This document shows, piece after piece, positions 6,590 through 29,562 of a stretch of 64,000 bases of DNA (position 1 is its first letter; the number at the start of each line of letters is the position of its first letter). The DNA is taken from IMG/VR virus record IMGVR_UViG_3300031555_004524, positions 96,001-160,000 of that record; one strand, written 5' to 3'. The DNA comes from a virus (Duplodnaviria; Caudoviricetes). The notes below the pieces were generated by a model that saw nothing but the letters and a program-made list of their open reading frames with translations, searched no databases and was not told the DNA's origin. The position numbers and the translations under genes were made by a program.

Positions 6590-8971
6590 CTATTTTATTG
6601 TGCATTTTACTATCATATCGCCTTTTGTAGATAAAATCTTTGATCCAGACGAGATACTTGATCCTCTTGGAATGTCTGATACTGGAATTTCAAATTTGTT
6701 CATCTTTGTAACAATATTAAGAATATTCTTATCATTTACTCCAAATATAGTTTTAATCTTATCTGTTTTTCCTAATTTAATTACAGATGATCCAGCCTTA
6801 TATCTATTAGATCTTTGCAATCCAGATATATTAAATCTATTAGCTTTACCTGATTCTGTCAATACAATTATATCTGTAGCATCTGGTAATATTACACTGA
6901 TACCATCTATAGTTTGACCTTCTTGCAACGCCATTGCTGATACTCCTATTGTATTTCTTCTATACTTAGGAATATCTTTCATATTAATTCTTAATGCTCT
7001 TCTATCACTATATATAATCACATCAAGATTATCATTCAATCCTAATACTTCCTTTACAGTATCACCAGGATTTAATTTTGTATATATTATTCCTGATGGT
7101 GGCACTGTAATAAAATCATTAAGATCCATTTTCTTGATACAGTTATTTGATGTAACCACTATAATATAGTGAGGTGATACCAATTTAGAAAAATCTTTCA
7201 ATATAGGTTCGTACATAACAGCCGCTATTTCAGAAGTTAATCCTTTTAATAGCATTCTTATATCTGCACCTGTAGTGTTTCTCTCCGTTATTGGTATTCT
7301 ATGAACTGGCAATTTAAATACCTTTCCTTGAGCAGAGAATAATAAAATATTTTCAGTATTCTCTACATTTAATACAAACTTTGGAGAATCTCCTCTGTAT
7401 GCACCAACTGGTTCATTCTGAGGCAATTTCTTAATATAGTTATTTTCTGTAACTACTATTGTAAAATTACCCTGTGGAATTGCTGATGTATCATTCATAC
7501 TAATAAGTTTGCACATTCTAGGTTTTCCATATTTCTTTTTGATAACTTCTAATTCTTCAATAATATCTTTAAGAATTAATTCATCATGAATAATATGATC
7601 TTCATGATATTTAATAATTTCTAATAACTTTTCTATTCTAGCTTTATATCTATTAAGGTTAGCAATAGATAATCTCTTAACTTTCTGCTCTATAATAAAT
7701 TTAGCTTGAACGTCAGTTATCTTAGCATGCTTAACAATATACTCAATAATAACACTATCATCTAAAGTATTTTGTTTAGTAATCATGTTAATAATTTCAT
7801 GAATATAACCAGACTCCATAACCTTAACATAAGCATCTAATTTATGGAATTCAGTTTTAGCATCCTGTTGCTCTATACAATGCATTCTAAATTTAGTTTT
7901 CTTTCGCTCTTCAATAAAGAATTCTAAATATGATTTATATGACATTCTTACAACTTCTGTATCTACCAAAACTTCAAAGTTTACAGTATACGTAGATTGT
8001 AATTGTGTATTTCTATATAATACATCTCTAACAAAATTAGGATCAGATCCAGGTTTCAAATAAATAAGACATCTCATATTTGAACCTTTTGAGTCTTCTT
8101 CTAATTTCACTACTTGTGGAAGTTTACCTTCTTTAACCATTTCTAATATACTATATTTAACACCACCTTTTTCTGGTGATCCTTTATCATAGTATACTCG
8201 TTCTGGTGTGGATTTAACAACAAGTCTATGTTTTCCTTTAGCATATTCCTCTATATCTATTATAGCTCTTGCTACATATTTTCCAGAACCTTTATTACAA
8301 ATAGATTTCCAGTTCGTATCTACAATCTCACAAGACATGCAATGATCTGGAACTAATACTACTTGAGATTTTGGATTCTTAATTAAATTTATAGTTGCAT
8401 CAATAACTTCAGCTAAATTATGTTTTGGAATATCTGTTCTCATACCAATTCCAATACCCCATGAACCATTAATAAGTAACCATGGGACTGCTACTGGAAA
8501 ACAATCAGGTTCTTTGGATCTGTTATTAAAAGTTGAAGACCAATCCACAACTGCTTTTGTTTTTCTCATATCAGATATGATACAATCCAATGCAAATTCT
8601 GATAGCATTATTTCAGTATATCGCATATGTGCTGCACCAGCACCCTGCATATTACCCATATTACTTTCTGAATATATTAATGGCTCCTTATATGACCACC
8701 ATTGAGACATTGGGGTGATGGCATCTGCTACGGCATCCGATGAATGAGGATGAGATCTACCTATTACGTCACCTACAACTTCAGCTGTTTTAACAAGCAT
8801 ATCAGAACATGGTTTTTGATTAAACATTGTATCTAATATACGTCGGTTTACACGTTTTAATCCATCTCTCGCATCAGGTGTTGTTCGTTTTCTATTTGCT
8901 TCTATAGAATACAATATAATATTATTTTTATATTGATCTCCTGCATCTTTTTGAATAATTATTTCGGACAT
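6590..8971 (-). CDS. gyrA: Type IIA DNA topoisomerase subunit A (GyrA/ParC family)
   Basis: PDARDGLK, HPH, catalytic AHMRYTE, LLINGSWGIGIGMRTDIPKHN, C-terminal beta-pinwheel repeats. Confidence 0.95.
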   Translation of the reverse strand: MSEIIIQKDAGDQYKNNIILYSIEANRKRTTPDARDGLKRVNRRILDTMFNQKPCSDMLVKTAEVVGDVIGRSHPHSSDAVADAITPMSQWWSYKEPLIYSESNMGNMQGAGAAHMRYTEIMLSEFALDCIISDMRKTKAVVDWSSTFNNRSKEPDCFPVAVPWLLINGSWGIGIGMRTDIPKHNLAEVIDATINLIKNPKSQVVLVPDHCMSCEIVDTNWKSICNKGSGKYVARAIIDIEEYAKGKHRLVVKSTPERVYYDKGSPEKGGVKYSILEMVKEGKLPQVVKLEEDSKGSNMRCLIYLKPGSDPNFVRDVLYRNTQLQSTYTVNFEVLVDTEVVRMSYKSYLEFFIEERKKTKFRMHCIEQQDAKTEFHKLDAYVKVMESGYIHEIINMITKQNTLDDSVIIEYIVKHAKITDVQAKFIIEQKVKRLSIANLNRYKARIEKLLEIIKYHEDHIIHDELILKDIIEELEVIKKKYGKPRMCKLISMNDTSAIPQGNFTIVVTENNYIKKLPQNEPVGAYRGDSPKFVLNVENTENILLFSAQGKVFKLPVHRIPITERNTTGADIRMLLKGLTSEIAAVMYEPILKDFSKLVSPHYIIVVTSNNCIKKMDLNDFITVPPSGIIYTKLNPGDTVKEVLGLNDNLDVIIYSDRRALRINMKDIPKYRRNTIGVSAMALQEGQTIDGISVILPDATDIIVLTESGKANRFNISGLQRSNRYKAGSSVIKLGKTDKIKTIFGVNDKNILNIVTKMNKFEIPVSDIPRGSSISSGSKILSTKGDMIVKCTIK

Positions 8972-9040
8972 AAACTTTAGTTCCTCCTTATATAATCTTA
9001 ATATTAAGTTAAAAGGTAATTAATACGCTACCTTTTTTAT

Positions 9041-9057
9041 CATAAGTATAATATATA
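9041..9057 (-). promoter_or_regulatory. Representative early-type phage promoter TATATATTAT-N4-RTG (16 copies)
   Basis: + strand CAY-N4-ATAATAT at 484, 9041, 11303, 11891, 15400, 17310, 22840, 23129, 33675, 39351, 43584, 43969, 44141, 47211, 52780, 60070; all at 5' ends of minus-strand units. Confidence 0.85.
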
Positions 9058-9072
9058 ATCAAGGAAAAAAAT

Positions 9073-9104
9073 AAAATAGAGTAGAAATTAATCTACTCTA
9101 TTTT
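9073..9104 (-). terminator. Intrinsic terminator closing array 1
   Basis: AAAATAGAGTAGA-N6-TCTACTCTATTTT inverted repeat followed by a T-run on the minus strand. Confidence 0.8.
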
Positions 9105-9108
9105 ATTT

Positions 9109-9439
9109 TAATTCATTTTCCAAAAATAACTATATTATCACATATAATTCATTTGTTATGATTAACTATATTTATTTGGTTAATTCATTTGTCGGTTTTA
9201 ACTATATTTTTAGCTTTAATTTATTTCATGTCAATAACTATATTAACTGACGTGATTCATTTATTGCAGGTAACTATATCAAATCGCATAATTCATTTAT
9301 CTGAAGTAACTATATTGCATTGCATAATTCATTTATCTTAAATAACTATATTGTGTATCATAATTCATTTATCTGAAATACTATATCTTCACTGGTAATT
9401 CTTTCCCCATTCTAACTATATTAGCATATATAAATCAAA
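9109..9439 (-). repeat. TIGR-like dual-repeat guide array 1 (9 units, 36-nt period)
   Basis: + strand units TAATTCATT-N9-TAACTATAT-N9 start at 9109, 9145, 9181, 9217, 9253, 9289, 9325, 9361, 9396 (closing degenerate repeat at 9431); the 9-mers between repeats vary. Confidence 0.93.
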
Positions 9440-9452
9440 ATATATAAAATAA

Positions 9453-9475
9453 AGGATAAGATATTATCTTATCCT
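9453..9475 (-). terminator. Hairpin/terminator between the Tas-like gene and array 1
   Basis: AGGATAAGAT-ATT-ATCTTATCCT followed by TTATTTT on the minus strand. Confidence 0.65.
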
Positions 9476-9490
9476 CTATAATATTATTAT

Positions 9491-28623: not shown

Positions 28624-29562
28624 ATGAATGTAAAAATGAAACGGTTATCCGATTCTTATATATATGGAATCGGAGAATATGAAAAGAATTTATTTAAATT
28701 TTTTATGCAATCTGAAATTATGGATAAAACTGACAAATCTTTTGATGACATTAGATATGAAGTAAAGAGAGGACAGCAATCTGTTTTATTAAAAACTTTT
28801 GATTCTGATAATGTAGTATTCCTGTATAATACAACTCCTCTACCTAGAGCATTAAAGGTATTTGCAGCTCAGGATATAAAAACTGGAGATAAAAAAATGA
28901 GGGTATTCGTCGATATGAGTGATGCTGTTGTAAAGAAAGATGGCAACTATGTTTTACGTCCAGGTTCTTTAGACAGAGTATTATCTTATTTAACTTCTGC
29001 CCTTGCTCATCTCATTTACTATGCTGATCCTTCTAGAATAGTAAATAATTCATCATTAACGGAACACGGAACAGAAGCTTTTGCTAAATTGTTTTCACAT
29101 ATTATCGATTTATTACGAATCGGAGCTGTTGATAAGTTAAGAGAAAAATGTTTATATCTAGGATCAGTATATTATCAGGTAAATATATTATGTAAAGATT
29201 TTTCTGATAGTGTAGAAAATAGAGCAAAGAAAATTTCTAGATTAAATAGCAGAGATATAGAAATGATTGAAGTTTATTTAGATACAGATACTTTTAAGGA
29301 TATTAATTCTTTTATCCAATCAGTGTCTAAAGTTATAAAAGCAGATGGATTAAAAGTTGATAACTTTATTGAAAAATGGATGACTACTTATGGACCTGGA
29401 ACTCAGTTTGCTGTTGAGCTGTTTCCATCTTTTTCAACGTTATTAACTAACGCTTATAACGGAGCATATTTAAATAATCAGAAACAGATAGAAAAAATAA
29501 CAGGACAGAGTATGGTAAATTATTCAGTTTCCTTACTTCGTCTGGGGAGTGATCTTGCATAA
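28624..29562 (+). CDS. Putative virion structural protein
   Basis: 312 aa, AGGAGG RBS, late promoter AACA-TACTAG-TA at 28582-28593. Confidence 0.55.
   Translation: MNVKMKRLSDSYIYGIGEYEKNLFKFFMQSEIMDKTDKSFDDIRYEVKRGQQSVLLKTFDSDNVVFLYNTTPLPRALKVFAAQDIKTGDKKMRVFVDMSDAVVKKDGNYVLRPGSLDRVLSYLTSALAHLIYYADPSRIVNNSSLTEHGTEAFAKLFSHIIDLLRIGAVDKLREKCLYLGSVYYQVNILCKDFSDSVENRAKKISRLNSRDIEMIEVYLDTDTFKDINSFIQSVSKVIKADGLKVDNFIEKWMTTYGPGTQFAVELFPSFSTLLTNAYNGAYLNNQKQIEKITGQSMVNYSVSLLRLGSDLA

Follow-up and report, generated by a model that had tools for sequence, protein, structure and literature searches.

The window analysed here is a 64,000-nt stretch of the genome of a gut jumbo phage, a single 248,162-bp virus record of 29% G+C that is complete by CheckV. 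A tasA-like gene on the minus strand (9491..11245) encodes P0001, a protein of 584 aa with a coiled coil and a Nop domain, and is the only tas gene in the phage genome. On the same strand lie a gyrA-like topoisomerase II subunit gene (6590..8971), whose place downstream of tas is conserved among related jumbo phages, and a gyrB-like topoisomerase II subunit gene (11957..14374), conserved as the upstream neighbour of tas. Between tas and the gyrA-like gene, at 9109..9439 (minus strand), is an array of nine edge repeats AAUGAAUUA and nine loop repeats AUAUAGUUA, hereafter array 1. Such arrays belong to the TIGR-Tas systems, which were described in 2025 (Faure et al. 2025, PMC12045711).

The gyrB-like/tas/gyrA-like order (window 6590-14374) recurs in several related jumbo phages (L082, L083, L166, L167 and L169), and L166 has an intein in its gyrA gene. 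At L167/L168 and L169, no array adjoins the tas gene between gyrB and gyrA. The DNA fetched for the loci with R-type or S-type Tas (L102, L167/L168 and L169/L170) contained no array, and these loci therefore add nothing to the K/R comparison made below. A search of window 8900-12100 against Rfam matched zero families.

A dual-repeat array next to tas

Array 1 comprises eight complete edge-spacer A-loop-spacer B units. On the minus strand, nine copies of AATGAATTA, some in the variant forms AAAGAATTA, AATAAATTA and AATGAATCA, alternate with nine copies of ATATAGTTA, one of which has a 1-nt deletion. The period is 36, and the spacers are variable in sequence and 9 nt long, save one of 8 nt. The whole 9-mers are almost invariant: the middle base of box C is U in 17 of 18 copies, and all eight of eight loops compared are identical. 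A purine precedes each repeat, being A in 14 and G in 3 of the 17 spacers. The combined repeat pattern, allowing up to two mismatches, has 11 matches in the window where shuffles predict 0.26, and none of 100 shuffles reached that number. Contigs from four faecal DNA runs cover the array with zero differences and so say nothing about spacer turnover. Dual-repeat TIGR-Tas loci are defined by two different repeats of 8-12 nt in alternation, spacers about 9 nt long, units of about 36 nt and a neighbouring gene for a Nop-domain Tas protein (here 9491-11245), and window 9109-9439 is confirmed as a genuine dual-repeat TIGR array. The core of the first-pass annotation, which had described AU-rich dual repeats ending in UUA on the minus strand, has thus held up.

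Within window 9325-9404, three successive units of array 1 have near-identical spacer B sequences (UUUCAGAUA, UUUAAGAUA and CUUCAGAUA), and spacer A of each of these units opens with UG. The likeness of the B spacers suggests either array growth via unit duplication followed by divergence, or related targets.

The Tas protein

The identity of P0001 required a family profile and a fold search, since Pfam gave only a sub-threshold IS110 match and a single-sequence PDB search gave E ~0.1. A profile of 23 P0001 homologues matched TaTasR (9MTY, E 7e-21), TasH (4e-9) and IS621 (6e-5). The AlphaFold model (pLDDT 85) aligned by VIA-align with TasH 9vzx_B (Z 18.6, 225 aa, rmsd 3.0), TasR 9mty_B (Z 17.4, 194 aa, rmsd 2.3) and IS621 (Z 12.4), the best unrelated chain scoring Z 7.5. 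Foldseek returned E-values >0.001 for the same model, which we attribute to a large insertion: residues ~55-171 and 431-564 form the coiled-coil and Nop parts, divided by a helical insertion at 172-430. The signature motifs found in the Tas proteins that Faure et al. list in their Table S1 (PMC12045711) also occur in P0001. A tblastn search of GenBank phages gave zero matches. The P0001 family comprises 1,945 representative clusters at 50% identity; the first-pass annotation had expected searches based on canonical repeats to miss this family, but the protein is readily found by sequence.

HNH and RuvC domains are absent from P0001, which has no Pfam nuclease match; the Tas-aligned part begins at residue 54-58, and residues 1-54 are modelled as low-confidence helices. 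Lacking a nuclease domain, the protein falls into the TasA class rather than TasH or TasR, and on its predicted structure P0001 is a Tas fold protein of this class. P0001 comes from an uninterrupted tas reading frame and retains the invariant Nop residues. It also retains the processing dyad Y546/H553 in the C-terminal Nop loop, its members seven residues apart, which is the spacing of Y289/H296 in SpTasH. The insertion (~260 aa, residues 172-430; window 9958-10732) is all-helical, occupies the wedge position and is modelled at pLDDT 90; compared with PDB structures, its best match reached Z 3.9, with none above. Insertions of 150-260 aa at the wedge position are common to the jumbo-phage clade.

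Strand and flanking signals

According to Faure et al. (PMC12045711), a TIGR array runs in the same direction as tas, opens with an edge repeat that is truncated and closes with another edge repeat, after which comes a rho-independent terminator. Array 1 has this layout when read in the tas orientation. Its 5' start is a truncated edge-like UGAUUUA near 9430-9436, and its 3' end is a full edge repeat (9109-9117) directly followed by a rho-independent terminator at 9068..9109 (minus strand; 18-bp stem and T-run), which is identical in the relative L081. A terminator-like hairpin on the same strand (9449..9479) separates the tas stop codon from the array. A more remote array in the window (array 3, below) likewise closes with an edge repeat directly followed by a minus-strand hairpin terminator with a T-run, at ~33358-33392.

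The first-pass annotation had itself named transcription from the plus strand as grounds for abandoning its reading; the repeats would then be UAAUUCAUU and UAACUAUAU, and choosing the wrong strand would have produced the UUA grammar. In favour, the 9068-9109 terminator has a bidirectional shape, and array 1 contains several plus-strand promoter-like matches, though not above shuffles. However, the genes flanking array 1 are all on the minus strand, and the T-run and the edge-then-terminator layout suit that strand only. Furthermore, 144 of the 175 Tas-relative loci that we fetched carry dual-repeat arrays of period 34-38 with GA..CCA-type repeats on the tas strand, of which a plus-strand reading would be the reverse complement; the window edge repeat aligns base for base with the canonical AGCGAGCCA on the minus strand only. 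Co-orientation, terminator layout and the grammar of the relatives leave plus-strand transcription with next to no credence, and comparison of these sequences supports reading the arrays from the minus strand.

No promoter was identified for array 1, and the minus strand has no AR9-type AACA-N6-TA motif upstream of any of the arrays. A minus-strand terminator hairpin follows the gyrB-like gene (11920..11953), and a sigma-70-like promoter match (11939-11911, 10/12) overlaps its promoter-distal side, just upstream of a second array. The region 11366-11418, between this second array and the start of tas, holds an exact copy of the AR9-type late-promoter motif (AACA-N6-TA) on the plus strand, antisense to the tas leader; a strong hairpin with a plus-strand T-run comes no more than 10 nt after the motif.

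Further arrays in the phage genome

Upstream of tas is array 2 (approximately 11432..11902, minus strand), in which ~12 edge-like and ~11 loop-like repeats recur in degenerate form every 36-37 nt; its edges have the form ..UGAAUUA and its loops end in (G/A)UUA. Array 3 (approximately 33392..33627, minus strand) shares the grammar of arrays 1 and 2 in its ~6 edge and ~6 loop repeats and is remote, ~22 kb from tas. Both are more degenerate than array 1 and irregularly spaced, and could be decaying.

Two extra arrays lie outside the window, at G000:C1:12740-13090 (~10 units) and C1:15437-15640 (~6 units). They are on the genome plus strand, which corresponds to the window's minus orientation, have the xUUA grammar and are each closed by a hairpin terminator; they sit ~180-185 kb from the genome's sole tas gene. 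Other period-36 signals at G000:C1:29.5-37.7 kb (29528-29806, 33723-34954 and 37494-37656) were rejected as arrays, being collagen-like G-X-Y coding repeats, probably of fibre genes.

Repeat grammar

To our knowledge, every characterised TIGR guide has CC in its box C, and its box D contains a G. In the window, both repeats have UUA as box C, and box D is AA for edges and AU for loops; the letters CCA or CCN and UG or AG are thus replaced at conserved positions. Faure et al. (PMC12045711) allow box motifs to diverge if edge and loop covary. The two window repeats do so, as a symmetric dimer would lead one to expect, both ending in UUA and sharing A1, A2, A6, U8, U9 and A10 of their 10-mers, with only the second base of box D set apart (A in the edge, U in the loop).

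For the comparison we number the repeats as 10-mers, the common edge form being G1-A2-G3-C4-G5-A6-G7-C8-C9-A10 and the common loop GAGAGAACCA, and count covariation over 67 cleanly parsed relative arrays. Edge pair 3-8 is G-C in 51 of these, A-U in 8 and U-A in 6. Pair 4-7 is C-G in 44, U-A in 19 and U-G in 3, although 4-7 complementarity was the rule for calling edge against loop and this pair is therefore no independent test. G1, A2, G5, C9 and A10 are each retained in at least 62 of the 67 arrays. The window edge 10-mer AAAUGAAUUA preserves both pairs, as A3-U8 and U4-A7, and retains the G5-A6 cleavage dinucleotide and A10; its unpaired changes are G1 to A and C9 to U. In the 9-mer numbering of AAUGAAUUA, A2-U7 and U3-A6 can pair and G4|A5 is kept. 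Hence AAUGAAUUA is a transition-recoded AGCGAGCCA, in which both G-C pairs have become A-U with GA and the terminal A retained, and only the middle base of box C (C to U) has changed without a partner. We also considered a G1-C9 pairing, by which G to A would accompany C to U, and dropped it, as relatives combine A1 with C9.

The loop is more aberrant than the edge. Its 10-mer AAUAUAGUUA has U-U at 3-8 and no G5, and its conserved part is (G)UUA. Thus AUAUAGUUA lacks a Watson-Crick box C/D pair; a standard pair there is also missing from 13 of the 67 related loops, and G occupies position 5 in 65 of 67. Recognition of the window loop may be different in ways that are not understood.

These comparisons refine several points of the first-pass annotation. 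It had called the terminal TTA the best conserved element of all three arrays in the window. For the loops this is sound, the penultimate T being present in 25 of 25 copies over the three arrays with a drifting 5' part. The edges behave otherwise: the first T of TTA is present in 27 of 27, but the internal GA is at least as well kept (26/27 and 27/27) and four of the 27 end in TCA. Likewise, its rule that TIGR repeats typically begin with UG and end in CCA applies to TasR (PMC12045711), whereas characterised TasA and TasH arrays use AG. The proposed exchange of CCA for UUA stands for both repeat types and is a trait of the lineage; the accompanying loss of a leading UG does not, as the ancestor was of the TasA-type form (G)AG....CCA and not UG....CCA. 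The box D change from G to A is the compensatory partner of the box C change from C to U, and so what appeared as a lost UG is really AG to AA.

Distribution among relatives

The comparison of box C covered 117 non-redundant loci with arrays. In 102 of the 117, both repeats have C as the middle base of box C. Having U there in both is confined to a single jumbo-phage clade, which shares the gyrB-tas-gyrA synteny and includes the window (AAAUGAAUUA / AAUAUAGUUA, period 36), apart from L172/L173, which have K at position 523 of Tas (see below) and no gyrB or gyrA gene in the fetched flanks. L081, whose Tas is 74% identical to P0001, has the same xUUA repeats as the window and the identical terminator with zero shared spacers. 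L082-L085 and L174 (46% identity) have AAAUGAAUUA / AAUAUNCUA at period 35, and L166 (40% identity) has AAA(A/U)GA(A/U)UUA / AAAAUAUA at period 34. Its occurrence in relatives at 74%, 46% and 40% identity with different spacers supports the UUA box C as a lineage trait, as judged from the loci compared.

Sister jumbo lineages (L087, L007 and L035/L039/L053) still end in UCA. Together with L001-L003, these IMG/VR and metagenome TIGR-TasA loci resemble the window system in their A+T-rich jumbo-phage context, large insertion, repeats that start with AA and periods of 35-36 nt; they differ in their UCA box C (AAAAGAUUCA and AAUAUAUCA) and in having K523, P545 and A484. Elsewhere, UUA in the edge repeat only has arisen at least twice (L076/L077; L137/L147). 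Very long, partly degenerate arrays lie downstream of tas at L082:4657-7317 (~2.6 kb) and L172:2579-4555 (~1.9 kb); the repeats of the latter end in UUU or UUA.

Among the sampled loci, the window system has the most divergent repeat code. Over the 117 loci, repeat GC tracks flanking GC (Spearman rho 0.78, p 6e-25, not corrected for phylogeny), making A+T pressure the likely driver; the AU-rich grammar is likely best explained by genome A+T pressure on the repeats.

Residues that may read the repeats

Three core positions of Tas, K523, P545 and A484, are 100% conserved in the 102 C-type loci and altered in the U-type clade. K523 is changed to R in 5 of 6 members, P545 to I or Y in 6 of 6 and A484 to V or I in 5 of 6; P0001 itself has K523R, P545I and A484V. 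Position 523 aligns without gaps with K310 of PlTasA and with K267 of SpTasH. In PlTasA, R306 and K310 contact the box C nucleobases (10.64898/2026.08.11.744272), and in SpTasH, K267 adjoins H268, which is needed for processing (PMC13421893). Position 545 directly precedes the catalytic Tyr. The first-pass annotation had proposed a co-evolved RNA-binding pocket. A change at the position of a lysine that contacts box C, along with P545I and A484V, fits that proposal, but the changes are confined to one clade, and so count as one evolutionary event, and have exceptions. On these alignments pocket co-evolution is suggestive only; some adjustment of the Tas RNA-binding surface (K523R, P545I, A484V) probably accompanied the change from C to U.

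In its stronger form, which the first-pass annotation also put forward, the proposal makes this an orthogonal, recoded system, in which the TasA pocket of the clade would require UUA/AA and reject CCA/AG guides and canonical Tas proteins would reject UUA. Such exclusivity would agree with the confinement of U in both repeat types, L172/L173 aside, to one clade among 117 loci, with the replacement of residues that are otherwise fully conserved, and with the placement of 523 at the base-contacting lysine and of 545 beside the catalytic Tyr. Against this, all the changes amount to one phylogenetic event, and the pairing of residue and base is loose. L166 combines U-type repeats with K at 523, the window phage itself has UCA in 4 of 27 edges, and UUA edges occur together with ACA/CCA loops alongside K-type proteins in two other clades (L076/L077, L137 and L147). 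Moreover, the native SpTIGR array holds one unit with the edge AGCGAGUUA and the loop AAACAAUCA (Table S1, PMC12045711), so that UUA/UCA variants are a minority inside a characterised array. These exceptions suggest that either C or U is tolerated in the middle of box C, and we consider strict orthogonality unlikely, and less likely than a shifted or relaxed preference.

In the fuller version, the guide-protein interface of the gyrB-tas-gyrA clade would be re-specified: a TasA that carries R523, I545, V484 and the 260-aa wedge insertion would read UUA/AA, and the guides would be orthogonal to canonical CCA/AG systems. We regard this as a doubtful though not negligible prospect. If it were true, two TIGR systems could coexist in one cell without cross-loading, and the clade would offer a second independent scaffold for multiplexed TIGR tools.

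Discussion

Taken together, the window probably holds a functional dual-repeat TIGR-TasA system of an A+T-rich gut jumbo phage. Our model builds on the arrays, grammar, strand, Tas fold, lineage distribution and compensatory edge changes described above; for transcription, TasA binding, processing and targeting, it draws on homology with SpTasH, TaTasR and FpTasA.

A close match in architecture is FpTIGR-TasA from Flavonifractor plautii (PMC12045711), which likewise has a nuclease-free Tas of coiled coil and Nop domain with a Y/H loop, two alternating repeats of 9-10 nt, 9-nt spacers, a ~36-nt period and arrays that flank the gene. Its repeats AGUGUACC and AGUAACCC have AG at box D and CCN at box C, whereas the window has AA/AU and UUA; furthermore, the window system has the 260-aa wedge insertion in P0001, and its arrays are dispersed up to ~185 kb from tas. 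SpTIGR-TasH of Salicola phage CGphi29 (PDB 9W03/9W04/9VZX; PMC13421893) is the best structural match (Z 18.6) and is also phage-borne. Its dyad Y289/H296 corresponds to Y546/H553, and, as in array 1, the last base of its spacers before box D is a conserved purine (N8A). Conversely, TasH has an N-terminal HNH nuclease that P0001 lacks, its repeats are AAGCGAGCCA and AAGACAACCA, and its K267 corresponds to R523 in P0001. In TaTIGR-TasR (9MTY), the edge likewise consists of box D, two pairs around a G|A cleavage site and box C, and the TaTasR Nop domain is homologous to that of P0001 (E 7e-21, Z 17.4); the system differs in having a RuvC nuclease and the repeats UGCGAGCCA and UGAAACCCA.

By analogy with these systems, the arrays (three in the window and two elsewhere in the genome) would be transcribed from the minus strand, and a TasA dimer would bind each unit via the repeat ends, namely box C UUA and box D AA (edge) or AU (loop). 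The Y546/H553 loop would then cut the edge repeat at G|A, giving 36-nt tigRNAs of the form AAUUA-spacerA-AUAUAGUUA-spacerB-AAUG, whose two 9-nt spacers would pair with opposite strands of an 18-bp DNA site. Because TasA has no nuclease, it would bind or block this site rather than cut it. Certain nuclease-free TasA proteins have been shown to repress transcription (10.64898/2026.09.09.750476), and by analogy the P0001 system most likely guides binding to DNA that it does not cleave, with host or competing-element DNA as its putative targets. In this lineage, A+T pressure would have turned every G-C pair of the canonical edge AGCGAGCCA into A-U, giving AAUGAAUUA, and in the U-type clade the middle C of box C would also have become U in both repeat types.

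Spacer pairs (A with the reverse complement of B, and other arrangements) had no match with up to one mismatch in the phage genome or any of the fetched loci, and at up to 2-3 mismatches the matches equalled shuffled controls (4 vs 3; 0.8 per 18-mer). Could the arrays then be a decaying relic, the mutational debris of a former canonical TIGR array that yields no working guides? Besides the zero targets found in the DNA searched, the degeneracy and irregular spacing of arrays 2 and 3 point that way, as does a loop without the canonical pair and without G at position 5. Debris of this kind is hard to reconcile with an array 1 that is nearly invariant in its box C middle base and its loops, with edge changes that are compensatory, with a grammar that persists to 40% protein identity despite complete turnover of spacers, or with an intact tas frame in which the Y/H dyad and the invariant Nop residues are present. 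We judge decay improbable and retain the reading of a working TIGR-TasA system.

The recoding in this lineage defines which repeat positions are truly needed. Its survivors are only A2, the GA cleavage site of the edge and the terminal A, and the supposedly fixed middle C has been replaced. On the protein side, it provides three candidate specificity residues in Tas that are open to mutation. It also bears on how such systems are found: array searches that key on CCA and UG/AG motifs may miss some of the arrays of A+T-rich phages, and TIGRFinder placed arrays at only about one third of 20,096 tas loci. The published view that the Nop domain of dual-repeat Tas proteins stays plain is at odds with the insertion in P0001, and the clade, with its 260-aa insertion and periods of 34-38 nt, is a counter-example both to that plain domain and to a uniform 36-nt guide. 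Indeed, the locus and its relatives show how far the repeat code of a TIGR-Tas system moves while its architecture stays.
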